Below, in pieces: positions 1 through 44,642 of a stretch of DNA of 64,000 nucleotides. Each line of letters starts with the position of its first letter. Position 1 is the first letter of the stretch. The stretch covers positions 1-64,000 of the forward strand of contig RSEE01000038.1 in assembly GCA_003971905.1 (NCBI GenBank), written 5' to 3'. A model generated the notes under the pieces. It had not been told where the DNA came from. It ran no database searches and was given only the letters and a program-made list of their open reading frames with translations. This stretch comes from Moniliella sp. 'wahieum' (taxonomy: Eukaryota). The position numbers were made by a program, and so were the translations under genes.

Positions 1-838
1 GGCGCAGCGCTCCAAGCCCGCGAACGCAGGTTTTGCTACCCAACAGGATTGGATCGTGCCGCCGTAGTTGAGACGATCGAGGAATGACGAAGACGAAGCT
101 ATTGTCCTCTGCCCCCCGTCCCGGCCCCTGCTCTGGTTTCCGAACCCGCCACACTTCGCTTGGGAAAAGGCGGAGGGACCTAGACGATTCCGATGAGGAG
201 GAAGAGATGGTTCCTTCATACCTTCAACCCACTGGTTTCGACACGGACTCAGATGATGAGGATTTGGTGCCACGTCGTCTCCGACCCCCGCCCCCGCCGG
301 AGGAAGATGATGTGATGGTCCCCGTCCCCGCGGCGGAGGATCTGAAGAACCTGTGGAGGCGACGCAGAACCTCCCTCCTGGTTGGAGAAGCAACGCAAGG
401 CAGCGCAAGAGCGCAAGCATACCGACCTCGGCAAGCGCTCTCAATTGGCTACCATCTTTTCCGAGCAAGAACTCGAGGGGATCCAGTTGCAGTCCAAGGG
501 CAAGGCGCAAAAAGGCCCGCAAACTCGCTCGCCGTGAACGTCGGGCTAACGCGGATGGTCTGGGCGAATTGATCGAGATGGGTATGGGCCTTGCCGAGGA
601 GGAGGACCCCGAGGTACGCCGCAGGCTCAGGACAATCCAAGTTTTGCCCCGGGCGCTGGGCCCAAACCTACCTCGCCTGAGGCCATTGATACGGACGATG
701 AGGAGGTCGCTGCTCCTCGGCCCAGCCGAAGAACGCGTTTGCTCTCTTGAACGTCGAGGGGGGCAGCGATGAGGATGAGGAGGAGGAGGAAAGCAAGCCG
801 AGGCACCTGTCGCTGTTGATGAAGATGAGGAACTGTAA
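1..838 (+). CDS. 3' part of an acidic, low-complexity hypothetical protein (frameshifted)
   Basis: D/E-rich coding-like stretches across several frames (DDSDEEEE, EEEDPEVRRR), ending ...AVDEDEEL* at TAA 836-838; no domain recognised. Confidence 0.4.
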
Positions 839-1010
839 CCCGCTTGTAGGCAAGACGAGCGGACGAAACTATGGCAATATTGTCTTTGGCTAAACAATTC
901 GGGTTGCTGGGGGCACTAGAGCTCCGAGTGCAAACGCGAGTGAGATGTAACGAAGGATTCCGAACTGGTACAGGTGGTAGGTATCTCGCCAAAGACAAGG
1001 ATATATAGAA

Positions 1011-2781
1011 CTAGGAGCCCCAACCAGGCGTGGGGAGCGCGAACGATGGTCCCCGTAATCCCGATGATCGCGCCGCGGCTGTCTCGCTTCGAGTCGCGGC
1101 GAGAGCGCGTCGTGCCCTCTGGACTCGGAGCGGTAACCCGAGCCTTGGGAAGACGGTCATAGTCATACGCCGAGGGGGTGACAGCATATCGTTTGTCCGT
1201 CGCTTCTTGGCCAAATCAGGACCCAGGGAGCTGTGCTTGCGCTTGGCCGGACGCTCTTCTTTCCAGCGGGAAGGAGTATCGGACACGCTCTCCTCCAGGA
1301 CAGGCGAATCGTTTTGGACAAGCTTGTTGAAAAGGTCGCGCAACTTGCTGGGCTGGACCTGGGATAATGTCAGCGTGAATCCAAAATGAACGGAATAGGG
1401 ATAGAGACGTACCTCCGAAGGCCAAAAGTAGGATGCAAACGTCCAGAGATGACGGTCGAGCTTCTGGCGTTGAGCGCGCGACTGATTCTGGCCTTGAGCA
1501 TTGACCGATCGCTCGATCTGTTGTCCAATTGCAGCGAGGGCGAGTTTGAGGATAGGTACTGTCTGCTCACGATCCATGGGATCCAGACCGGTTCGCAGAC
1601 GTTTGAGGTGCTTGCGACACGGACGCAGTAGTTCCTTGCACTGGGCCTCGTCCATATCATCGTCATCGTTCTCCTCTTCCTCCTCTGAATCAGAGTAATC
1701 AAGCGACACGCCCCCCGGCCCGACGGAGGCACGAGCGGGGAAGCCTTCGCCCATCGAAAGATCCACCGGATCAGCAACCATGGCCTTGAGATGATCGTCG
1801 TGTTCCCGCAGAACCTTCAGCAAATAATCTGCCCTCCGTACAAGGTGGACCGAGCTGGGGATGGGCTTGATTTTGCTACCGTCATCGGCGGTCACAGCCG
1901 CTGGGGTTGGGCTGGCCTTGGGCTTGTGCTTTCCTTTCTTGGCCTCTTCGACCTTCTTGTTTTTTTCCTTCTCTTCCAATAGGAAGAATTTGCCCGCCAG
2001 CTTGAGGCCTGGATCAGCTTCGACTTGCTCCCACGAACCTAGGCCGTAGCGGTAACACCCAACAAGCAGGTGGGCGTCATCTTCGGCGGTCCAGGGAACG
2101 GACCAGTTCATGGTTGTCTTGAGCGACTTGGCCGGCACGCGCCACGCATTCTGGCCTGATTCGCTCAGTCGATCCAACGTCTCGCCCAAGACGCAGATCG
2201 TTGTGCCGAATGACCGTTGTTTCCGCATTGATCTTGTCGACCCGTGAACTTGACCAGCACCGCCTTCTGGCGCACTTTCGACACATCCTCACCGCGTGCC
2301 AGCATGGCACGAAGCTGGCGGTCGTGGGCTTGGACAGCGGCAGTGCAGATGGCAAGAAGATCGGCCGTGGTACGCATGACGACGGCCTTATTCTTGCCTT
2401 GCAGACGCGCCTCTTCGACCAGCTGGTCATAGCGGTACGCTGGGTCGCCCCACTTGTGCACGCCGCGCAAGAGGGTACGGATGTCGCGATCGTTGATCTC
2501 CATCGACTTTTCCGCTGCCGACTTGAGCTTCCGCCGGGGTACGGGGGCCGGGGGGGTTTGCTGGCGGCCGAGGGGGAGGCAGCGGGGGTATCGGCAAGAC
2601 TGGCGCTGGCGCTGGCGCTGGCACTGCGGCTGCGGCTGCGGCTGGGAGTGCGACTGTGGCTGCGGCTGCGACTGCGAGTACGGCTGGCGGTGCGGGTGCG
2701 GGTGCGGGTGCCATGGGGATCAGGCTCGGGCGAGGCAGCCGGAGACTCGGTGCGCTCCGAGTCGGACGCAAAGGCGGGCAT
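1011..2781 (-). CDS. Chd1-like C-terminal protein: SANT-SLIDE DNA-binding domain plus DUF4208/CHCT, no chromodomains or ATPase
   Basis: ATG 2781 (MPAFASDSE); SMEINDRDIRTLLRGVHKWGD; NWSVPWTAEDDAHLLVGCYRYGLGSWEQV; HLVRRADYLL; CKELLRPCRKHLKRL...RHLWTFASYFWP; in-frame intron 1359-1412; frameshifts near 2550 and 2160-2240; 3' end approximate. Confidence 0.8.
2600..2712. repeat. Coding hexamer microsatellites (GCGCTG/GCGGCT/GCGGGT) encoding SA/SR/TR dipeptide runs
   Basis: Tandem 6-mers visible in the sequence, within the N-terminus of the Chd1-like ORF. Confidence 0.8.
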
Positions 2782-3648
2782 GGTGGGGATGTGGCTGGAG
2801 GTGGTGGGGGGATGGCGGTGGCGGTGGCGGCGGGGCACGGGAGCGGGGCACGGGAGCGGTGGCACGGGAGCGGGGGCGGGGAGCGCTTGCGCGGTGCGCG
2901 TGCGTTGGATGCGGTGCCCGCAGCCGCAGCGGCCGCGTGGCCAGCCACGGGCCTGGCCTGGCCAGCGCCCCAGTCAGGCGTCGGGATGCCGGATGGGTCG
3001 ACGGGCGGAGCAAACGCAAGCGCCGACGGCGGAAATATTTTCCAGCACGCCGCGCGTGGCCTCAGCTCAGCTCAGCTCAGCCCTCAGTGCGCTCGCGCCG
3101 CCGCCTGGCCTGAGCGCGTCAGCGTTCGAGGGAACTGCACGCCCAGCGCTTGCACGCCGCGGCTGCGGTGGATGGGATGGGATTGCCATGTGATTTTGTC
3201 GGGGCGCGGCCGCGTTCAGCGCGCCAGCGCTCACCCGCCCAGCCACCGCCCACATGTCACAGCCGCACCCACACAGACCCCTCGGGCCCTCAGGCGTGCA
3301 CACGGCGCTCACCATCGCCACTGCCAACTAGCATTATGCATTCCCTCCCTGTTGCTATTCACCCGGGCGCTTTTCATCGACTGTCAGTCTCTGAGCCTCG
3401 CCCTTTTCAGCGCTCGCCTCCGAACCACGTCGAGCTCCTCCTTCAGCACTCACGCCGCCACCCCCTTCTATACACGGCGTAGTGCCTGGCGTCCGGCCAT
3501 TGGCCATCGTGCTGCCCCCGGCTCAGCCTTTTGTGCTACCTTTTGCACTTCCTGTTTCCTCTTCATGCACGTTCCCCTTCAGCTCAGCCAGGCTAGCTTG
3601 AACCTCATGCCCACCACCATCGGCCATCCATCCATCGTATTCCTCAAC

Positions 3649-4192
3649 TCAGTCTTGCGACGCACAGCCCCGGCACCCACAGTTTTGGCATTCCACCACC
3701 ACCGTCCCTGGCCGCAGCACCGCCTTTGGCACACGGCAGATGCACGTAGCGCCGTCGTAGTTGTTGTCGCGCGCCTGAATGCACCGCACACAGCACAACT
3801 TTTCGTATCCTTGCCGCTTCCACTTGGCCATCAGACTGGAAGAGCAGCCCGAACAGTGCAGCAAGCAACCTCTGTCAGTATGTACTTCCCCCCTGCGCAG
3901 CCAGCCTCAAGTCAATACTCAATACGTACTTGGCATCCGCATAGCGCTCCTTGATCAGCCAGTCGTACAGCTCTCGCGAAATCGCTTCGCGCTTGTAGTA
4001 GAGGTCGTAAATGTAGCGGGTGCGCATGTGCGCCAGCTGCAGAATGGGCCAGACCGACTCGGTACGGCGCTTGCCTTCATGCGACGCGGCCTCCGCCTCT
4101 CGCATCTTGCGCTCGTACTCGTCCAGAATGTCGGCAATCTCCTCAAACCCCTCTGGGGGAGCCTTGGTCCGGCTGGTGCGAATGGAGGGCAT
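3649..4192 (-). CDS. BUD31: Pre-mRNA splicing factor Bud31/G10
   Basis: [19 protein letters not shown]...[23 protein letters not shown]; intron 3836-3929; [18 protein letters not shown]...TCICRVPK...[14 protein letters not shown]. Confidence 0.97.
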
Positions 4193-4560
4193 GGTACAGT
4201 CACCGCTCGAACTGCGCGCAGAGCAGGGAGGCCAGGTGCGAAAAAGGCGGTAGTGGATCGGCTGCGGCAGCTGAACGAGCGTCGCGGTTGCCGTTGTCGT
4301 CTTCTCGTAGCCCTTTGGTGCTTCAAACACCAAATTCAAGGCGGAGGTGGTGGTTGCGCAGATGCAATTTCATCCATCCTCAAATGAATATTGATCACCG
4401 ATTGCCGATCATCGATCCCCCTCCTCCCCAAATTCCGCCCGCCTGAGCATACGCGTTCCACTGGCTGGGCCCCGGCGGTGCACACGCCAGCTCACGACCA
4501 ACCCTCGCCCGCCCCCATCACCCCATCTGCATCTCTATCGCCACCTCGTAACCGCAACCC

Positions 4561-5520
4561 ATGCAAACTGTGCTTGCTCCTGCCTCGGCCCCAGGCGGCT
4601 TGACTGCGGCTGGACCCAACCAGCGTGGCTTCAACCCCTACACCTCCAACGGCGGCTCCATCCTCGCTGTGGCAGGACAAGACTTTGTGTCTTGGCCGGC
4701 GACACTCGTCAGTCTGAAGGCTACAACATCCAAACCCGCTACAAGCCTCGCGTCTTTCGTCTGTACGTATCTCCCTCCCTCTCTATGATATTCTGTGCTT
4801 CTGTCTTGTCACATGTCATACTCATACGACCGCACCACCAGAAACGACCGTGCGACGTTGGCGACGAACGGGTTTGCCGCCGACGCTGAGGCGCTGGTGC
4901 AACTGGTCCGGGCTCGCTTGGAACTGTACCGCTATGCGCATGGCACATCGATGCCCTTGGCGGGCATTGCACGGATGCTGTGCACAATCCTATATGGAAA
5001 GCGCTTCTTCCCTTACTATGTATGGAATGTACTGGGTGGCCTGGATGAGGAGGGGAAGGGGGCGGTCTATTCCTTTGACCCGGTCGGCTCGTACGAACGG
5101 GAAGTGTGCCGAGCGGCAGGCGCGGCTCAAAGTCTACTCCAACCGTTCCTCGACTCGCAGGTAATGTACAAGAACCAAACTGCCACCCCAGGACGGCTGT
5201 TGCCCATCCCAGGTCACATTTCTCTCCAACATGCGATCAGCATCGCCACCGACTCCTTCACCTCGGCTACCGAGCGACACATTGAAGTTGGTGATGGCCT
5301 GGAGATCTTGTGGTGCGCAACCCCAAGGCGGAGACCACGGCAGAGACGAAGGATGAGGATGCACCGATGACAGCCGAGGATGCTTCGGTGTCGGTGCCGC
5401 CACCTGCAAATGCGCTCAACCTCCTCGCGGCTCCGTTCAATGCGGTTGAAGCGCAGGGGGGCGAGGATGAACAGCTTCCCGGTGCGACGCTGTAATTCGT
5501 AGGGAACTCAAGAGGACTAA
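4561..5520 (+). CDS. PRE7: 20S proteasome subunit beta-6 (PSMB1)
   Basis: FNPYTSNGGSILAVAG, AGDTRQSEGYNIQTRY, LYGKRFFPYYV, GKGAVYSFDPVGSYERE, SATERHIEVGDGLE, C-terminal ELKRD*; intron ~4764-4841; divergent from BUD31. Confidence 0.95.
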
Positions 5521-6806: not shown

Positions 6807-9790
6807 ATGCGTGCTGAGGGAATGCGTTTGGCGGCCCGCGTGGGCCTCCATCCCGCTGCTCGCAATGGTCGCGTCGGCCTGGGTGCCTTGCGCTCACCTC
6901 CCACCTCATCGCTCACCTCTGCGGCTCTCTTGGGGCAGCCGACTCGTGCGCCGCTCCTGTCCGTACGCCCACGCGCTTGGGTACCCCTTCCCCCCCCGAC
7001 TTCCCCCGCCTTACGGTACATGAGCGTGCGTGCGATCAGCTTCCGATTTGTGCCACGTATCGCATTTCGCCTCATCCGCCTTCCAGCTGCGCTCGGCATT
7101 ACAGGGGCCGGCATTTTGACCTATGCCAGTGGTAAGCTCGACGATGCGCGTGCCAGGCTGAATGAGTACTATCTCATGGCCGAGGGCCTGGCCGTTGAGG
7201 CAATTGGAACAGCTGGTGCATGGACCTCAGAGGCTCACGCTCAATTTGACACTTGGGTCAACAGTCTCGACTTTACCGCGCCCAGGAGAAACGCGACGAG
7301 TGGATTGATCGTGCCACCTCGATGCGTGAGCGAGCTCGCGACTTTTTTGCTGGCCTGGGGAGCGGAGATGAACCTGGATCGCGTCTTCTTCTGGTTCTTC
7401 TACTTCGTCCTCAGGGCCCGGGGGTAAGGGTCCCGCGGCTGCCTTGGCTGCCTCCCTCTTTGCCAAGTCTGGCTCGGACGAGCAGGCAGCCGATGAGGAG
7501 GAGGAAGCGTATGACTCGCAAGACAGCGCGGCCAGTTTGATGCACCTCACTCGCCAGCTAATTGAGGTGCGCAATATTCTCAAGACCATTGATCATACTG
7601 GCGAGGAGATCGCACTTCCCTCGATCGTTGTAATTGGCTCCCAGAGCAGCGGAAAGAGTTCGGTACTGGAGGCGATTGTTGGTCATGAGTTTTTGCCCAA
7701 GGGCTCTAACATGGTTACCCGCCGGCCCATCGAATTGACCCTGATTCACACGAAGGCAACTGGGAAGAAGGGGGACGTGGTGGAGTATGGCGAGTTCCCT
7801 GGCACGGGCCTAGGTCCGATCCGCGATTTCCGCCAGATCCAAGAGACGCTACGGGATATGAATTTGGCTGTACCCAAGGAACAAGCTGTATCCGACGTGC
7901 CCATCGAACTTCACATTCACTCGCCCCATGTGCCCGATCTGAGCATGATTGATCTGCCAGGCTACGTCCAGGTGGCTGGGATGGACCAGCCTGATGAGTT
8001 ACGGGAGAAGATCGAGAAGCTGTGTGAGCAGTACATTGCTCCCTCAACCAATAATGTGATCCTCGCTGTTTGTGCGGCGGATGTGGACTTGGCCAACTCT
8101 CCTGCCCTGCGAGCCAGCCGCAAGGTCGACCCGCTAGGCTCCGCACAATTGGTGTGATCACCAAGATGGACCTTGTCCCACCCGAAGTGGGAGCCTCGAT
8201 CCTATATGGAAACCGCTTCTCTCTTTGGGGTATGTGGGCGTGGTCGCCAAGAATCCGGTGTCCCTGATCAAGAGTCGACTGGGCCGGAGCCATAGGCGGT
8301 CGGGTTTGTCGTCCTTAACTGACTCGGTTGAGAAACAGGAGGATGACTACTTCGCCCAGAACGCAGTGGCGTTCGAGCCCCCGCTCAAGGGTCGCCACGC
8401 TGGGGTAGAACCTTTGCTGGGTACGGATGCCCTTCGGCGGAGGTTGATGACTGTGCTCGAGGAGAGCATGGGTTCGAGTTTGCAAGATGTGTCGACGGCG
8501 GTGCAGATGGAACTGGAGGAGGCGGCATACGCGTTTAAGGTGCAGTACAATGATCGCTCCATCTCCGCCGAGGCGTATGCAGCAGAGACGATTGATGCGC
8601 TCAAGCACCGTCTTCAACTGCTTGCCGATCAATTGGGCAAGCCCCAAGCTCGGGCACTGCTGAAGCACGCCTTGGACGAAAAGGTGCTGGACATTTTGGC
8701 TCAGATGTACTGGTCTGACGCCCGCACCGCCGAGCTTTGCGCTGCGGGGGAGGCCAAAATGCTCCCTGCACCCAAAACAGCTGAAGACATGGAGAAGATA
8801 GACGCAGCACTGGATCGGTACTGGAAGTACAAGCTTGACGCATCCACCTCGGCCCTGACCAAGGCAGGCATTGGCCGGCTCAGCACACAGATTGTTGTCA
8901 ATGCGATCCGCACGGAGCTGGAGCGTCTGCTCGCTTCGGAACCGTTTGCGCACCACAAATCCACTTCCGAGCGGGTTGAGGCATTGGCGGCGGCATTCTG
9001 CGTGAGCGTTTTACCCTAACGGCGGACCAGGTGGAGAATGCGATCAAGCCGCTCAAGTACGAGGTGGAGATTGAAGAGCGGGACTGGAGCACGGGGCGCA
9101 ATGATGCGACACTACTGCAGCGGGAACTGGACATGTGCACGGAAGCAGCCAAGCAACTCCGCTCCACCATCGGAAAGTCCCGTTTGAATGCGGCGGTGAG
9201 CCATGTGAAGGATCTGGATGAGCGGCAGCGGCAGCGTGCCGCCGCTCGCTGGAGGGCTATCAAAGAACGCTCGGCCCACCCGGATGCTCCCCCCACGGTG
9301 GAAGAGGACTTGGAAGCCAATGACCCTCTTCGTCCCGACTACAATGCCGCCTTGCTGGGTAAGGCCCGCGAGGCCATTTTCCTCGATGCCCGGGCCGACA
9401 TCTTGAAGAGGAGGTTGAAGGCGTTGGGCTCCAAGCGATGCAAGGCTGGACCCGGAGTACAGAGTGATGCATACTGCCCCGAGACGTTCCTCAACGTAGT
9501 AGCGGACAAGCTGACGTACACATCGGTCATGTTTATCAACATCGAACTGCTCGCGGAGTTTTTCTACCAGTTCCCGCGCGAGTTGGACACGCGCCTGGTC
9601 CAAGAGTTGAACCGTGGGGAAGTGGAGGCGTTTGCACGGGAGAACCCAGTGTGCGAGACCACCTGGATCTGCAAGGACGCAAGAGAAGCTGGAGCTGGTT
9701 CAGACCAAACTCGACACGCTCTTGAAGCTTTATCAGGGCAAGACGGCTCCGTTGCGACCGCAACCCAAGTCCAAGTGGTCCTTTTTCTAA
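6807..9790 (+). CDS. MGM1: Mitochondrial inner-membrane fusion dynamin-related GTPase
   Basis: Arg-rich presequence and hydrophobic segment; [77 protein letters not shown]; ends KWSFF*; several frameshifts. Confidence 0.95.
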
Positions 9791-10324
9791 TGCTTGCCTT
9801 ACTTGGCGACAGAGTCGGGGAACACCGATGGCGTGGTTCTCTGCACCTGCACTTGTTTCTTCGCCTGGTTTCGCCAGCGGCGCCCTCCTGTCTTTCTGTC
9901 AAGTCATCTGTTCTCTGCAAACACTTTCCCAGCCTGGGACCAACAGATAGCCATCGCGGACGCTTCCCTTTATGTCTCTGTTCTTCACACCTCTCCGATC
10001 TCACGTTTTATGCATACCATGTACATATCTACCCTGTTCCATGCTACGTGGGCCACCACTATAGACATATTCATAGAGTAGGGCAGAGACGGCTCAAAGG
10101 ACTGCGTTGTCTTCATATGTATTCCGCCGGGAGCATCCTTTTGGGGCGGGCGTGGTAGAAGGGCTAGACAGGGGATGGGGATGAGCATCCCAGGGAGTCC
10201 AGTCGCAGAAGAATGACAGGCTCAGGCGTATCGATGTCGTCCGAATAGGTGGGTGAGTCACATTAACCGGTTTTGTTACATCCCTCACCTTGTCCACCTA
10301 GAGGAGGGCCGATGGACCCGCAGT

Positions 10325-32155: not shown

Positions 32156-32772
32156 AGTGCCTGGTTGGTCGGTGGTGTGGAGGTGGGGTTTTCAGCATGA
32201 GGCCTCTGAGCATGTCCGGCGCCACGCGCCGACTGCGCAGCCACTGCTCCAGCCGAGCAACGGTGGACAGCCAAGCCGGGGGTCACCGGTCAGCTGACCG
32301 GGGTCACCGGCGCTCACCGGGCAGCATGGCAACACCCCCCGCCTGCGGCAGTGTGCGATGGGCCGCGCACGTGACGGTTGCTGGCACCGACAGCACGATG
32401 ACGTCAGGCGGCATGCGTGCAGCTCCAGCGGTGCGCTGCCGTGTGCTGGGCGGGGATGTGAGACGCGGATGTGCGGTGTGGATGTGACGCGGGGACGCGT
32501 GACGCGTGACGGCGGCACGGCAGCGACTGGGGGGCTGGCGGGGGAAGAATGATGGATGATGCATGATGGTCAGGCCGTCGCGCTGGGTGTCGGCCATGTC
32601 CGACTGGGGCACCGCCGCGCACACAGCAGCCGAGGGCAGCGCACAGCCCCATGCCAGCAGCGGAGAAGGGCTGCGGCGCGTCGGCAGCGTGTACTTAAGA
32701 ACTTAGACCCCCCGATGTGTCCCCAGCCCCGCTTCCCTCGGCCATCCTCCGCTTCTGCCAAACACACCGCCC

Positions 32773-34197
32773 ATGGCCGCGTACTACGGCGATCCACGCG
32801 CACCCGCAGGCAACTACCCGCCCCCGCGCCCCCCCTACCCTCCCGCCGCCTACCCTCCGCCCCCGCAAGCCGGTGCCTATGGCGGCTACCCGCCGCCCCA
32901 GGGCGCTCCCCAAGGCTACCCGCCCCCCCGGGCGCACCTCAAGGCTATCCACCGCCCCAGGGCGCTCCCCAAGGCTATCCCCCGCCCTCCTACCCTCCCT
33001 CCCAGCCAGCGTACGGCGCCCCCCCCCCCCCAGCAACAGCAATACGCCCCCCCACCCCGTCCGCCCCCCCCAGCAGCCATATGGTGCCCCTCCCGGTCCT
33101 CCTTACGGCGCCCCTCCCGGCCTGCGCACGCCATGCCGGCATCTACGGCCAAGCGTTTGCTGCGGGCCCTGCTCCTGGCCCTGCTGCGCCAGGCGGCGGG
33201 TTCACCTACCTGGGCATTCCCGTGCCGCCTCCGCCTCGCACCAACCCCTCACCGCTGCCCCAGCGATGGATGTGGCGGGCAGGGTGGAGCGGATCTAACG
33301 ATGAAGGGGTTCGGTACGGACGACAAGACCCTGATCCACGAGCGTGCACCCAGCATGATCCCTTTGTCATTGATGCGGTCCGCACCGGGTACAAGCAGTA
33401 CAAGGGCAAGGATCTGATGAAGGCGGTGGAAGGCGATGTGAGTGGTGGATGGTACGAGGCGGTGCTTCGGTTCCAAGTGTATGGTCCCGTGATGGGGGAC
33501 GTGGTGGCCTTGAGGCGGGCCATGAAGGGAGCCGGAACCGATGAGTCGGTGCTCACCGAGATCCTCTTGGGGCGATCCAACTCTGACATCCATTGCTCAA
33601 GTCGGCCTACCACGCACGTACAGCAAGCGTCTCGAGGATGCGGTCGCCGGGGAACTGTCGTTCAAACCAAGCGCATGTTTGCCAGGCTCTGGCCGGCGCT
33701 CGGAAGAACATGCTCTGTGGATCCCAGGCGCGTAGAGGAGGATGTACGGCAACTGTACAAGGCATGCGCGGAGCTGGCACCGACGAGAGACTATACATCC
33801 ATCTGCTGTCTCGCAACGACGCCCAGTTGGTGGCCATCGCCCAGCGCTACAAGCAAGTGCACCACAAGTCGCTTTCGTCTGCCTTGTCGGGCGACTTTAG
33901 CGGGCATATGCAGCAGGGGGTGGTCTATATCGCCACGGGGGCTGAGGACCAGCGGGGGTACAAGGGTATGGTGTCCAGCGGGATGCGACCTGATCTTCAA
34001 AGCGATGGATGGAGCTGGTACGAAAGACCGGGATTTGGTTCGTCGCGTCTGCCGCGCGTCCTGGAATCGCGCCCGGTTCCAGGCGGTTCAAACAAGCCTA
34101 TCGCCGAGCCCATAATCAGGATCTCTCGGTTCGCATCAAACGTGAGACGTCGGGGAACTACGAACGCTCGCTGGTCACTGTTGTCGACACAGCTTGA
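32773..34197 (+). CDS. Annexin (A7-like, Pro/Tyr/Gly-rich N-terminus)
   Basis: GYPPP repeats; four annexin repeats MKGFGTDD, MKGAGTDE, MRGAGTDE, MDGAGTKD; ETSGNYERSL. Confidence 0.93.
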
Positions 34198-38822: not shown

Positions 38823-38981
38823 TGTTGACATCCGTCCTAGGACCGCGCGGACCTGAGTCACGTGAGTCAGCTTTCATTCCTTCCGAGCTCGCACCAGTCT
38901 TCTGGACGAGTCAGTCGCAGAAGCTTCTTAGTCCAATACGACGTTCAGTGCTCACATTCTGTGGTAGTAGCGAGGCCGACA
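38823..38981 (+). repeat. 5' LTR (159 bp)
   Basis: TGTTGACATCC...GAGGCCGACA, direct repeat of the 3' LTR. Confidence 0.98.
38854..38869. promoter_or_regulatory. Tandem Gcn4/AP-1 sites overlapping an E-box (TGAGTCACGTGAGTCA) in the LTR
   Basis: Two exact TGAGTCA plus CACGTG; the same block is in the 3' LTR; binding not demonstrated. Confidence 0.5.
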
Positions 38982-39035
38982 GAGTTACATCCTTATCTGC
39001 TCATCCCTGAGCTGGCCAAAACTACACCCACAACC

Positions 39036-40283
39036 ATGGGCGCCAACGCTAACACCGATCTCTCGGTCAGCGACACCACAATGGTGAACAAGCGCGATTA
39101 CTGGACACCAACCGGTCGCGATCCGCCACCGATTGGCACCGACAACGAGGAACTCATGATGCTTTGCGCCGAAGCGCACCTGTGGTTCAAGAAGACGAAC
39201 GACATCGATGTCGTTAAAGAGAAGATCAACAGAGCTATACACGACAGAGCCGAGTGGCTTGGATGGAAGGACGAACCTACGTCTATCACGACAAACTGGG
39301 TTCGACGGGCTACGAATTTTGTGGTGCAAAACATCCACCAAATGGAAACTCAACCCAACGCAACTTTGGGGGCACCTACAGGCGCAGCCTCGCGACCCGA
39401 GTACGACCTTTACAGATCACTACGCGAGTCTCCCACCAAGAATATCAAGTGGCCTGATCTGAACAAAGACCCGTCCGCCTACAGCGCTTGGGAAGACGAA
39501 TTTCTCTTCGCGATAACAGATGCCCACCCCCACGCAAGCGACGTCGTCCAGAATGGTCGCAGCTCCCGCTACTTCACCGAGGACCTCGACAGACGCTTGC
39601 ACAACCTTCTTAGGGAAGCCATGCCGTCAACCCTCTTCCGGACGATCCGCACCCACCACGAAATATCATGCACCCAGGACACGCTGAACATGCTGCGTCA
39701 GCGGTATGGATATACGCCTACCGCAAACAGAGGGCCTCTACTCATTCGCTACTTTTCGGCCGACCAAGGAAACCGATCGGGTCGAGACTACCTCGACTAC
39801 ATGGAAGAGATCAGTGCAAGCCTGACGCGAGCGGGCATCCCACTTACGGAAGAGCAGGAACGCACTGGGATCCTACTCGGCTTACGCGACATGAGCATTC
39901 GCCAGCGTGAAGAGCGCTCGAGTCTAGACAAGTTACGGCAGGCCGTGATGGACATACCAGCCGCCACGTATCCCGGTGGAGAAAGGAAGAGAAACGGAGG
40001 CAAGCCGGTCAACGGAGGAACGCCTTGGACTCGACCCGACAGCGGGGGACGACCCACCAGCGGGGGAAAAAACTCCAGCGGGGGCAAAGCCGGCGACGAC
40101 AACCTCGCGGACACAAAGACCAAGGGGCAAGACCGCACCAACCAACCCTGGCGCAGCGCGACGTCTAATAAACCTGTTGTCCCTCCGCGCAACCCAGGCC
40201 GAGCCAACGCTCACGTCGCTCAGAGAGCGAGCTCTCCCGAGTCTGAAGTGATTGACGTTGATGCGGGCACAGCTGACTACTAG
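39036..40283 (+). CDS. gag: Copia Gag
   Basis: YSAWEDEF; UBN2/gag_2-like GRDYLDYMEEISASLTRAGIPLTEEQERTGILLGL; no CCHC knuckle; ends with TAG at 40281-40283. Confidence 0.85.
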   Translation: MGANANTDLSVSDTTMVNKRDYWTPTGRDPPPIGTDNEELMMLCAEAHLWFKKTNDIDVVKEKINRAIHDRAEWLGWKDEPTSITTNWVRRATNFVVQNIHQMETQPNATLGAPTGAASRPEYDLYRSLRESPTKNIKWPDLNKDPSAYSAWEDEFLFAITDAHPHASDVVQNGRSSRYFTEDLDRRLHNLLREAMPSTLFRTIRTHHEISCTQDTLNMLRQRYGYTPTANRGPLLIRYFSADQGNRSGRDYLDYMEEISASLTRAGIPLTEEQERTGILLGLRDMSIRQREERSSLDKLRQAVMDIPAATYPGGERKRNGGKPVNGGTPWTRPDSGGRPTSGGKNSSGGKAGDDNLADTKTKGQDRTNQPWRSATSNKPVVPPRNPGRANAHVAQRASSPESEVIDVDAGTADY

Positions 40284-43200
40284 GAACTCGGGGGCGAAAT
40301 GCGAATCATCCGGGCATTATATGACAGTGGGGCATTCCCATCCATTTGGAAAGACAAATCCGTCTTCACATCCATGACCCCTTGCGACGACGAGATAGAG
40401 GTTGCTAACGGGACACATGTAAAGGCGGAAGGACGAGGCACGGCCACAATCCGTATCCGATGCTTAGGAGGACACCAAATGGAGATAAAACTCCCCAACA
40501 GCCTATACATGCCCCGTTTCAGCCGAAATCTCGTCAGTGTAGCACACCTGTCGAACACCGGAATCGCATCATACTTCGCCCCACACCAGAAGGGTATCTG
40601 GCTTGGTAACCCAGGATCCACCCTACGAAAAGTAACCGGCAGTGACTATCAATTCACGATCTTACACAACCCGCGAACGCCACCCACACCCCTGCGGGCC
40701 ATGGCGACCAAACCGATCAAACCGGCCGACCCACCCTCAACCCCAAACTCCCTCGCAGCATCCCTGGCCCTGGACCACGTCTCTAAAGCCCACAAACGCT
40801 GGAACCACGCAGCCATCGACCTCTCCCCTGGCTTACACGATCGGAAACCGCAGGCCTCCGCGTCACAGCCAAGCATATCTCCCTCTGTCGTTCAGAGTGG
40901 GATTGCCCAACATGCGCGGTGGCACTAGCGACAGCATCGCCCCATCCGAGCCGGGACCGCCTCCGATCCAAAAGACCTTTCGAGGTCCTCCACGTCGACG
41001 TAGTAGACCTCCCCGGGTAACCGGCATGGGGCACGGATACGCCCTCGTCGCCGTTGATGACTTCACGCGGTACGTCTTCACCACAGCGATCCCGACAAAG
41101 GGCGCTGCAACGAAGGAACTGCGGAACCTCATATTGCGGGAGCAACGCTACGGCCCGGACAGACTGCTGCGGACTTTGCGCACGGACAACGCCCCCGAAT
41201 TGACAAGCGCACTGCAACCTTTTCTGGACGAGCAAGGCATCACGTCAGAACGGACAATCCCGGGGCAGAGTGCTAGCAACGGTGTGGCTGAGCGTGCCAT
41301 CCGAACCATAACGACTCGTGCAAGGCAGTTGCTCTTGGGTACAGGTCTTCCGACGTCGGACTGGTGGGAACACAGCCTCCACGCTGCGTGCTTCACCCAA
41401 AACCAAATGCCACTCAAAACATCCGGGGAAGACAACAAATCGCGATTTGAGCGATACAAAGGCCACGCATACTCGTTACCGATGCAACCCTTTGGCCGCG
41501 TTGCATACCTCCATCTGCCCGAGTCACGCCGCGAGCACAAGCTCAGCGCGCGGGCAGAGGAAGGTATGCTGGTAGGATACCACCATCAGCGCGGATCAAA
41601 GGGATGGCTCTTCGCCACATACCAACCATCCCTGGGTACCTTCACCTACCGCTGGTCGAAACCGTACAAATGGGGCAACGCCATCTACCCCCATCTCCAC
41701 CCCGACCACTTCCCACCCGACATCTCCAAATCACCTCAAATTAAAATCGACAGTGAAAAAGACGCTAACCCTACTCCGCCAGCCGCGGCAGCACCCATGC
41801 CCCGAACCGCCGCCACACCCCAGACACCCGCTCCCACCACCACCCCCTCCGCGCCGCTACCCCCTCCGCCAGCGCACCACCCGCACCTCCCTCGACCTGC
41901 ACACACTCCCAATCGCTGACGACCCCACCGACACGACCTACCATGCTCGTGCTGCAGCCGCCACGCCCCACTGCGCCGCACCAGAGATCGGCATCGCCCG
42001 CCCCCTACCTGACACATCCGCCCCCCCGTTTGCCGACACAGTTCAACCTCCCGAATACGCCGCCATGACTGCTCTCAGCGCACCCATCCACCCGGACACG
42101 GTTCAGCTCACCAAGGATGGCGTACCCCTCGCTCCCAAGACGCTCAAGGGTCTCGAGACTCACCCCTCCTTTGCCATGGTCAAGCAGGCTATGGCCGACG
42201 AGGTGGCCACACTCGCGCGATACGGCACCTACGAGGCTACGTACCCACCACCGGGTGCACAAATCCTCATAGGACTATGGCGCATCACCACAAAGACGGA
42301 CGCCGAGGGCCGGTTCCTGCGCCACCGCGCGCGCTTTGTCGCGGGCGGACACCAACAATCGGCCGAGACTTGGGGCCAGACGTTCGCACCATCGGTGCGC
42401 ACACCTGCCATCCTGACCCTCGTCGTGCTGGCCGAGAAGTATAAGTTTGGCCTCTTCTCGGCGGACGTCAATGCAGCGTACCTGAACGCCCCCCTCGAAG
42501 AAGCAGTCTACATCCGCCCACCCCCCTACTTCCCCGAAGCGGGTGGTCGCGTGTGGCGTCTCAAGAAGAGTCTATACGGGCTACATCAGAGCGGAGCAAA
42601 CTGGGCACGATACATCCGGAACCTGCTGCGTGACAAGCTCGGCTTCACGCAAAGCTTGACCGAGCCCTGCTTGTTCGTGCGCGCTGCACCACCGGGTGAG
42701 CAGATCCTCCTGGCGGTCCACACCGACGATCTGCTCCTCGCATGCAAGTCACACCAAAAGTACGAGGAGTTTATGGCCGAGAAAACACACACATTGATGT
42801 TCGTGGTAACGGTCCCCTTCACTACCACCTGGGATGCCAATACGATCGGATCGGTGGGGAGCTGTACCTGAGCCAACCAAAGTTCATCGAGGAAGTGGTG
42901 GCAAAGCACCACATCAAAGCCCCGTGGATCCGGACTCTCCCACATCCCGTACGGATGATACCGCCCCGTGCCGACCCTGAACCCCCATCCCTCCCAGCCT
43001 TGCGCAAGGCATATCAGGGGAAGATCGGATCGGGACTGTGGGCTGCACGAATGGGCCGGCCTGACTCCCTCTTCGCTATCACGGCCCTCAGCAGAGCCGC
43101 TGCCGACCCATCGCAGCAGCATCATCAAGCAGTCGATGACTTCCTTCGCTACCTGTACCATACTCGAGGAAAGGGCCTGAGGTTGACCCCAACATCAGAT

Positions 43201-43722
43201 GCACCGGCCATTGCGCTGTATACAGATTCCGACTTGGCGGGAGATCCCATCCAGGCACGCTCCACATCTGGATGCCTACTGATGGTGTACGGTGTGCCGG
43301 TGTCGTGGCGATCCATTCTTCAGCCGAAGAGCGTTACCAGTACCGCCGCCGCCGAATATACGGCAGGATATGATGGACTGGTTGACGCCAACTATGTCAA
43401 GAACATCATGATCGAGCTTGGGGCCATCGGCGAGGGTACACCCATTCATTGGTATTGCGACAATAAGTCTGTCGTCGATCTCGCCCACAAATTTGGCAGC
43501 ACCGGCAAGCTCCGAGAGCTGAAGATCCGGTACCACAATGTACGGCAACACGTGGACTCGGGCGAGGCCATACTTGTACACATCCCCGGCGAAAGGAACC
43601 CAGCGGACGTCCTCACCAAGCCTCTCGGCCGTCCCGCCCTGACAAGCCATCTTGCTCAACTCCGCGTCGAGGAGATGGATCCAGTCCACATGACTGGGCC
43701 CTCCGGTCAGCGGGGGTGTTGA
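40284..43722 (+). CDS. pol: Copia Pol (protease, integrase, RT, RNase H) with about 3-4 probable error frameshifts
   Basis: PR LYDSGA; IN HKRWNH..CPTC, VDDFTRY, LRTDNAPE, SNGVAERAIRT; RT RARFVAGG, DVNAAYLNA, LKKSLYGLHQSG, VHTDD; RH YTDSDLAGD, AAAEY, CDNKS, NPADVLTK. Confidence 0.93.
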
Positions 43723-43876
43723 CATCCGTCCTAGGACCGCGCGGACCCTGAGTCACGTGAGTCAGCTTTCATTCCTTCCGAGCTCGCACCAGTCTTCTGG
43801 ACGAGTCAGTCGCAGAAGCTTCTTAGTCCAATACGACGTTCAGTGCTCACATTCTGTGGTAGTAGCGAGGCCGACA
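43717..43876 (+). repeat. 3' LTR (160 bp)
   Basis: Direct repeat of the 5' LTR, preceded by a short G-rich tract AGCGGGGG. Confidence 0.98.
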
Positions 43877-44642
43877 GTGGGTAATAAAAGCGCTCAGTCG
43901 GGCGTTGGCCGGTGGCCGGTGGCGCCGTTTCGGGGCACTTTGGTCTTTAGTCCCGCCCGGGGCCGGCGGGGGAAGGAGGCAGACAGGAGAATTGATCGCT
44001 GGCAGTTTATAAGCGTTCTTGGGGATCTTAGGAATAGCCTTCCCACTGATCTCGCCGGTCCGTCTAGCATGAAGCTTGACCACCGTTCGGCCATCGTGCA
44101 TACTAGCAGGCCGTATATGCACTGTGGCAATTCACCACATCTACTCGGATTGGAAAACCCCCATTCACCAAACCCGTATCTCGGTCCTGAGGGGGTGATG
44201 GCGTCCAACTCTGAAGAACTGCGCTAAGTATGGCTTTCCATGGCTCACAATAGGGTCGACTCCCAAGGTGTGGTATGCGGAACTAGGTCGAGTTGGGTAA
44301 GCTATAGTAGAAACCAATGCACATTCACATGTCACACCTGCAGCGCCGACAATGTGGGGAAAGCGTGGCGCATGAGGTCAAATTCAGAGAGCATGAGGGG
44401 GACGGCATGCAAGGGGCGCTATAAAGGTGCGAGAATACAGCATGACAACAAATTAGTGCCTGTCAACGTGCTCGTGAGAGGTGATCAGTTGGCCGCGCGG
44501 GACAAGAGGGCCTAGGAAGGGGGAACGGGAAGAGGGGGGGGAAGGTATGAGATCTGAGAGATGAAGCGGAATAGCTGAGGGATGGGGGGAGACTGTGTTG
44601 TACACTTTTAACTTTCGAGCCACGAAGGGGCGGTTAAAGCGG

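Follow-up and report, generated by a model that had tools for sequence, protein, structure and literature searches.

The C-terminal module of the remodeler Chd1 is regarded solely as an arm that targets and regulates the motor, sensing linker DNA, linking ATP hydrolysis to sliding and, via Rtf1, holding the enzyme on elongating polymerase. The locus described here raises the question of whether such an arm may also be encoded as a gene of its own. An initial annotation of the window (by which we mean the whole 64-kb stretch of DNA that was analysed) had proposed a motor-less Chd1 near one end. At the level of this assembly, part of that proposal stands, since the module is present, no motor is found within 64 kb and the module is conserved as if functional; the supposed ORF, on the other hand, is broken three times as assembled. 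Our reading, which we advance tentatively, is that this may be a genuine motor-less gene, maintained by selection, that encodes the C-terminal third of a Chd1-type remodeler. The evidence for this reading, and for three competing ones, is presented below; a small residue of probability is assigned to none of the four.

The window consists of GC-rich fungal DNA with introns, and the closest named relatives of its genes belong to the Ustilaginomycotina, above all Tilletiaria anomala. A Chd1-type C-terminal module (SANT/helical linker, SLIDE, CHCT) is present at 2781-1011 on the minus strand, with BUD31 as its upstream neighbour on the same strand (Table 1). The Chd1-type DNA-binding and DUF4208 regions named in the initial annotation were recovered with Pfam. 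Within the ORF 1011-2228(-), HTH_CHD1_Hrp3 (SLIDE) matches with an E-value of 1.5e-20 (73.4 bits against a cut-off of 27) and CHD1-like_C (CHCT/DUF4208) with one of 5.3e-20 (72.1 bits against a cut-off of 28.3), and the piece 2243-2569(-) matches profile positions 1-76 of 120 of Cdh1_DBD_1 (E 7.8e-6, 26.6 bits against a cut-off of 26.4). The SANT/helical-linker assignment is thus marginal when judged by Pfam and clear when judged by homologues.

Table 1. Features of the Chd1 module locus and its upstream neighbour, with positions in the window.
Feature	Position	Strand	Remarks
BUD31	3649..4339	-	Two exons and a canonical intron, without frame break; Pfam BUD31 7.7e-33
Spacer from BUD31 stop to ATG 2781	2782..3648		867 nt, GC-rich, without Chd1 homology
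Putative start and Ser/Arg/Ala-rich low-complexity N-terminus	2570..2781	-	ATG 2781-2779, frame 1
SANT / helical-linker part of the DNA-binding domain (DBD)	2243..2569	-	Frame 0; 65% identity over 110 residues to P0001 894-1003
18-codon DBD stretch	2188..2241	-	Frame 1; 16/18 residues identical to Tilletiaria Chd1 1255-1272
SLIDE, shortened disordered linker and CHCT (DUF4208)	1413..2186	-	Frame 2; Pfam, yeast chain, AlphaFold2/Foldseek
Intron, 54 nt, in phase	1359..1412	-	Canonical GTACGT ... CTGAC ... CAG
Last exon	1011..1358	-	Conserved post-CHCT block, then low-complexity tail to the assembled stop 1011-1013

Structural comparisons agree with these assignments. Residues 1166-1266 and 1363-1452 of the yeast Chd1 chain 5o9g_W align to the SLIDE and CHCT domains (E 4.9e-28), and an AlphaFold2 model of 258 residues covering SLIDE and CHCT has pLDDT values of 78-93 in both domains. 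When this model was searched with Foldseek, the top 11 PDB matches were all Chd1 DBD or CHCT structures, the best ones for SLIDE being 2xb0, 5j70, 4b4c and 3ted, and the modelled CHCT superimposes on 2n39 with an rmsd of 1.8 A over 75 columns. A published study lists R1016, K1020, K1024, R1113, K1115, K1126, K1166 and R1255 as basic residues of the yeast Chd1 DBD (PMC3155300). Two of these DNA-binding residues, K1166 and R1255, are kept in the alignment to the yeast chain, and by-eye comparison with the yeast stretch places R, R and K in the SANT helix at a spacing matching that of the yeast basic residues.

Toward the 3' end of the gene, the intron at 1412-1359 coincides with a gap of 18 residues that appears when the locus is aligned to Tilletiaria. 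Beyond it, the region 900-1170 (-) carries Arg/Asp-rich stretches in two other frames that bear a faint likeness to the RD-rich tail of Tilletiaria Chd1. Searches for the frames and true stop of this C-terminal tail gave non-significant matches only (E 0.1-0.7); the stop at 1011 may not be the true one, and the tail perhaps contains further frame slips. A separate peculiarity lies at ~1700-1780 (-): relative to P0001, P0002 and Tilletiaria, the basic disordered segment that joins SLIDE to CHCT is short by ~40 residues, which could reflect either a real deletion or a mistranslated stretch.

When five full-length Chd1 proteins were compared with the 64-kb window by tblastn, their C-terminal parts alone aligned (E 1e-101 to 4e-105), over positions 2569-1170 and beginning at about residue 894 of 1316 in P0001 and residue 1160 of 1758 in Tilletiaria P0003. 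At E <= 1e-3, these searches revealed neither a Snf2 ATPase (SNF2_N plus Helicase_C) nor a chromodomain in any part of the 64 kb. Pfam, applied to all window ORFs of 110 aa or more, returned no chromodomain at E <= 1e-5, and a relaxed search of 2400-5000 yielded low-complexity noise only. To this extent, the remark in the initial annotation that there is too little space upstream for tandem chromodomains and a Snf2 ATPase holds, and its estimate of ~870 bp between ATG 2781 and the BUD31 stop at 3649 agrees with the spacer length measured here. Homology sets in within the motor-DBD linker, at a clean domain boundary, and an ATG lies within a few codons of this start.

The approximately 75 low-complexity N-terminal residues described earlier were likewise found, and are encoded by a (CTGCGG)n hexamer microsatellite of ~15 copies at 2600-2711. 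Joining this N-terminus to the SANT frame needs at least one frame slip between 2719 and ~2551, possibly at the C7 run 2550-2556. A 13-nt tandem repeat of 3.5-4 copies occupies 2830-2885, a short way upstream of ATG 2781. The spacer contains stops in all minus-strand frames from ~3060 to 3650 and ends at BUD31 exon 2, whose stop is at 3649-3651 and which covers positions 86-146 of the 146 in the Pfam BUD31 profile (E 8.9e-24). By eye, the N-terminal peptide has no likeness to the N-termini of eight full-length Chd1 proteins, all of them being of low complexity; such a likeness would have suggested an internal deletion.

Several tracts elsewhere in the window also reach 70-77% GC, at 10.7-10.9, 32.2-33.1, 45.6-46.5 and 49.2 kb, and at least one of them falls within the low-complexity N-terminal part of an annexin ORF (32553-34112). 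Because similar tracts occur elsewhere in the window, the one at 2.4-3.1 kb does not set the Chd1 locus apart. The context of the module is gene-like, with a canonical intron, a GC-rich low-complexity 5' region like that of other window genes and a clean domain boundary.

The initial annotation had described a single ORF running from ATG 2781 into the Chd1 regions. The domains it named are confirmed by Pfam and tblastn, but the continuity is not: homology to the module passes through three reading frames with no intron between them. ATG 2781 lies in frame 1, SANT (2569-2243) in frame 0, the stretch 2241-2188 again in frame 1 and SLIDE/CHCT, from 2186 onward, in frame 2. The switches fall at ~2242 and ~2190, and there is no room for introns at ~2242 or ~2187-2190. 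The break sites are at short homopolymers, both breaks flanking 2188-2241 sitting at GGG runs. A GT-AG 'intron' at 2241-2156 (86 nt), which would link frames 0 and 2 in phase and thereby conceal both breaks, was considered and rejected, because the stretch it would skip encodes the 16/18 Tilletiaria-identical residues in the third frame; its 5' site reads GTCGAC, unlike the GTACGT of the two canonical introns seen. When the module is read through, with X at the two breaks and the intron removed, it comprises 450 codons with zero in-frame stops.

Frame breaks of the same kind are found in other genes of the window. The sulfite reductase beta gene at 18915-14625 (-) shows 19 frame switches in 4.29 kb when compared with its close relative P0178, nearly all of them a net loss of one base, and its in-frame pieces are 85-97% identical to that relative. 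The gene for the Mgm1 dynamin-like GTPase at 7372-10155 (+) uses three frames within 80 nt of its GTPase domain, with breaks near 8141 and 8215, and its alignment to the Chaetomium chain 6ql4_A stays contiguous over these switches (to residue 420, 417-448, and 448 onward). A Ty1/copia-type LTR retrotransposon at ~38850-43880 (+), with Pol_BBD, rve and RVT_2 domains, is young, since its direct repeats at 38852-38982 and 43747-43877 are 100% identical over 131 nt; its gag-pol is nevertheless split over four frames and contains one in-frame stop. The broken sulfite reductase, Mgm1 and copia sequences lead us to conclude that deletion-type consensus errors pervade the assembly, at roughly 2-4 per kb. 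At this rate, any of its genes would be expected to show about three breaks in 1.8 kb, and on the reading that we prefer those in the module arose in the deletion-prone consensus and not by mutation.

These observations bear directly on the view that the locus is an old, decaying pseudogene. Three frame breaks in 1.8 kb without introns would fit such decay, but because the neighbouring housekeeping genes Mgm1 and sulfite reductase are broken at equal or higher density, the breaks are uninformative on this point, and frameshifts as a sign of pseudogene decay were ruled out by the same breaks in these two genes and in the copia element. The module has also kept 46/48 invariant columns and acquired no stops, and even its frame-shifted stretch of 18 residues is identical to Tilletiaria at 16 positions. 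We regard an old pseudogene as very improbable.

The same error rate can be turned against the structure of the contig. According to this alternative, which we consider unlikely, the locus is an ordinary full-length CHD1 from which the assembly lost or misjoined 3-4 kb encoding the N-terminus, chromodomains and ATPase. The poor consensus, exemplified by the 19 switches in sulfite reductase, is in its favour, as is the location of the boundary within simple repeats and a 70-77% GC tract. However, the missing segment would be unique coding sequence rather than repeat, the BUD31 side and the Chd1 side both resemble normal gene ends, and comparable GC-rich tracts are found at other window genes. 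Moreover, deletion-type base errors are typical of long-read consensus sequences, whose large-scale structure is usually sound.

To place the module among its relatives, the read-through was compared with full-length Chd1 proteins. Its identity to Tilletiaria Chd1 is 47.5% over 480 alignment columns (E 2e-134), and to P0001 and P0002 it is 52-53%. In a maximum-likelihood tree of 15 C-terminal regions, the module is sister to P0001 and P0002, both full-length Chd1s (support 100/99), and this group lies inside a clade with Tilletiaria (support 97/99). The end branch of the module has a length of 0.54, compared with 0.41 for its sisters. With three outgroups in turn, unique changes in the module and in P0001 numbered 48:31, 41:32 and 43:21, and those in the module and in P0002 numbered 49:30, 35:34 and 34:26. 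On these counts, the acceleration of the module is at most moderate, and part of it must stem from undetected indel errors.

Of 48 columns invariant in 12 full-length homologues, the module keeps 46; when homologues were left out one at a time, ordinary orthologues spanned a range that includes this value. Had its private branch been fully neutral, ~20 of the 48 columns would be expected to have changed, and the probability of 2 or fewer changes would be 3e-9; this probability rises to 3e-4 if half of the branch was neutral, to 0.12 for 20% and to 0.53 for 10%. The retention of so many invariant columns shows that the module evolved under purifying selection through most of its past. The module is therefore either functional or was cut off recently.

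The second of these options is the view that the locus is a recent truncation or partial duplication without function, in which the C-terminal third of CHD1 was left beside BUD31 by deletion, rearrangement or segmental copying within this strain or lineage and looks conserved because there has been too little time for decay. We consider this rather unlikely, although selection until recently fits it as well as it fits a motor-less gene. Neutrality over the last 10-20% of the branch is compatible with the conservation test (P 0.53 and 0.12, respectively), and the modest acceleration and the shortened SLIDE-CHCT linker also speak for it. The repeats at the boundary (2600-2711 and 2830-2885) could also promote rearrangement. 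Set against this are the position of the break in the linker between motor and DBD with no ATPase remnant, an ATG within a few codons of the start of homology, the 450 codons without a stop and a density of frame breaks no higher than in the housekeeping neighbours.

A comparison with sulfite reductase gives a further view of divergence. For that protein, identity reaches 84.5% with P0178, its best relative, and 70.5% with the Tilletiaria counterpart, whereas the Chd1 module is just 52% identical to its best relatives and 49% to that of Tilletiaria. P0178 and P0001 each represent three near-identical Logan sequences and might come from one species, in which case the module would be more diverged than an ordinary orthologue.

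We also asked how exceptional the arrangement is. A metagenome scan using alignment A1 recovered 80 loci with SLIDE/CHCT, and the ATPase is directly upstream in all 57 informative fungal loci, that is, those with at least 1103 nt of upstream sequence; the other 23 of the 80 have at most 1041 nt upstream. A metagenome scan with the single module protein found no relative. Among longer homologues, 26 of 27 have Snf2 domains, and the exception sits on a 3.5-kb contig. Homologues near the module in length (222-709 aa) comprised a single weak match, P0177, at 27% identity, so that they included neither an annotated stand-alone relative nor a gene model from this genome.

Twelve short matches from the representative library were inspected. 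All 11 short library proteins scanned by Pfam have SLIDE and CHCT, yet the inspected proteins look like fragments of full-length genes: P0029 clusters with the 1723-aa Chd1 of Jaminaea rosea, P0034 starts in the Helicase_C tail, P0032 and P0038 start in the post-ATPase region, P0047 is without a start methionine and P0030 begins inside SANT. Natural stand-alone forms are therefore not established by these proteins. A literature search for natural motor-less or split Chd1 found none among the papers listed, and a survey that counts 53 subfamily-I CHDs in 53 Basidiomycota describes the SANT-SLIDE-DUF4208 architecture as tightly conserved (PMC9113485).

Since the ATPase is directly upstream in every informative fungal locus, the arrangement is exceptional, if real. 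This has consequences for two of the competing views. It gives a motor-less Chd1 a low prior (57/57 loci with ATPase, together with the survey, PMC9113485), which favours an assembly artefact. The arrangement also recurs in no related locus, as would be expected of a recent truncation. In particular, the conserved BUD31-CHD1 synteny that had been suggested as a check did not materialize: BUD31, the proteasome subunit, Mgm1 and the left-flank ORF were near CHD1 in 0/80 metagenome loci, all of these being distant relatives at no more than 40% identity.

It should be noted that the motor-less gene that we tentatively prefer faces difficulties of its own. The ORF is not intact as assembled and its start codon is putative; 2-4 indels per kb invite doubt about the structure of the assembly as well; and the arrangement is without precedent, in a module that evolves somewhat faster than its sisters.

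If the locus is nonetheless a gene, its resemblance to known systems suggests what its product might do. Fungal Chd1 of CHD subfamily I (for example Tilletiaria anomala K437DRAFT_274892, our P0003) has the same order of SANT/helical linker, SLIDE and CHCT, and S. cerevisiae Chd1 (PDB 5o9g_W, 2xb0, 3ted) matches the SLIDE/CHCT of the window in sequence and fold. The differences are that fungal Chd1 has tandem chromodomains and a Snf2 ATPase upstream, both of which are missing from the window locus, that the SLIDE-CHCT linker of P0001 and P0003 is ~40 residues longer, and that the window module, unlike fungal Chd1, has its own N-terminus derived from a hexamer microsatellite. ISWI HAND-SANT-SLIDE shares the SANT-SLIDE unit, which binds linker DNA via a basic face (PMC3155300). 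Compared with ISWI, the window sequence and its Pfam families are of Chd1 type and CHCT follows SLIDE; no HAND domain was detected in the module by Pfam. Lineage-specific changes in CHD architecture are common to the window locus and to published cases, but in the cases described in the survey the motor is kept and accessory domains are lost, the reverse of what is seen here (PMC9113485).

The product would consist of a Ser/Arg-rich disordered N-terminus, a SANT-SLIDE DNA-binding domain and CHCT, with no chromodomains and no Snf2 motor, and the locus would be transcribable as a gene. Published work on SANT-SLIDE holds that it binds linker DNA via its basic face and couples ATP hydrolysis to sliding (PMC3155300), and that on CHCT that this domain alone suffices for binding the Rtf1 N-terminus and also binds DNA (PMC12390759). 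By analogy, the basic face of SANT-SLIDE in the window product may bind linker DNA without sequence specificity, and its CHCT may bind the Rtf1 subunit of Paf1C as well as DNA. Because nucleosomes cannot be moved without an ATPase, the product would not slide them and would act as a non-catalytic binder. The closest experimental parallels are the motor-less yeast fragments Chd1(863-1468) and Chd1(1353-1468), which were reported to be sufficient for interaction with the Rtf1 N-terminus by two-hybrid (PMC12390759). The window product would match the longer fragment, Chd1(863-1468), and Rtf1 binding is predicted for it on this analogy; the yeast fragments, however, are engineered constructs, whereas the window fragment would be a natural gene.

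Two roles may be envisaged for such a binder. Should the genome also encode a full-length Chd1, the two proteins could vie for Rtf1 and linker DNA; alternatively, Chd1 may be split in two, with this protein as its targeting half and the motor supplied by another locus. With somewhat more reserve than for the existence of a motor-less gene, we therefore put forward as a possibility that a basidiomycete yeast near the Tilletiaria lineage keeps SANT-SLIDE-CHCT as an independent selected gene, either as part of a split Chd1 or as a competitor or adaptor for Rtf1/Paf1C and linker DNA. If true, a remodeler targeting module apart from its ATPase would here be seen in nature for the first time. A natural gene for the arm alone would show the arm's own function, and would offer a ready-made natural 'dominant-negative' or split remodeler for studying how targeting is coupled to catalysis. 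If, on the other hand, the locus stems from misassembly or was truncated only lately, there is nothing unusual in it and the lesson is that nearly every gene of this assembly contains indels, so that its ORFs are not to be taken at face value. A minor example may lie on the other side of the module, where the convergent neighbour at 84-772 (+), which has no Pfam match, consists of acidic low-complexity coding pieces distributed over three frames and is probably another indel-broken gene.
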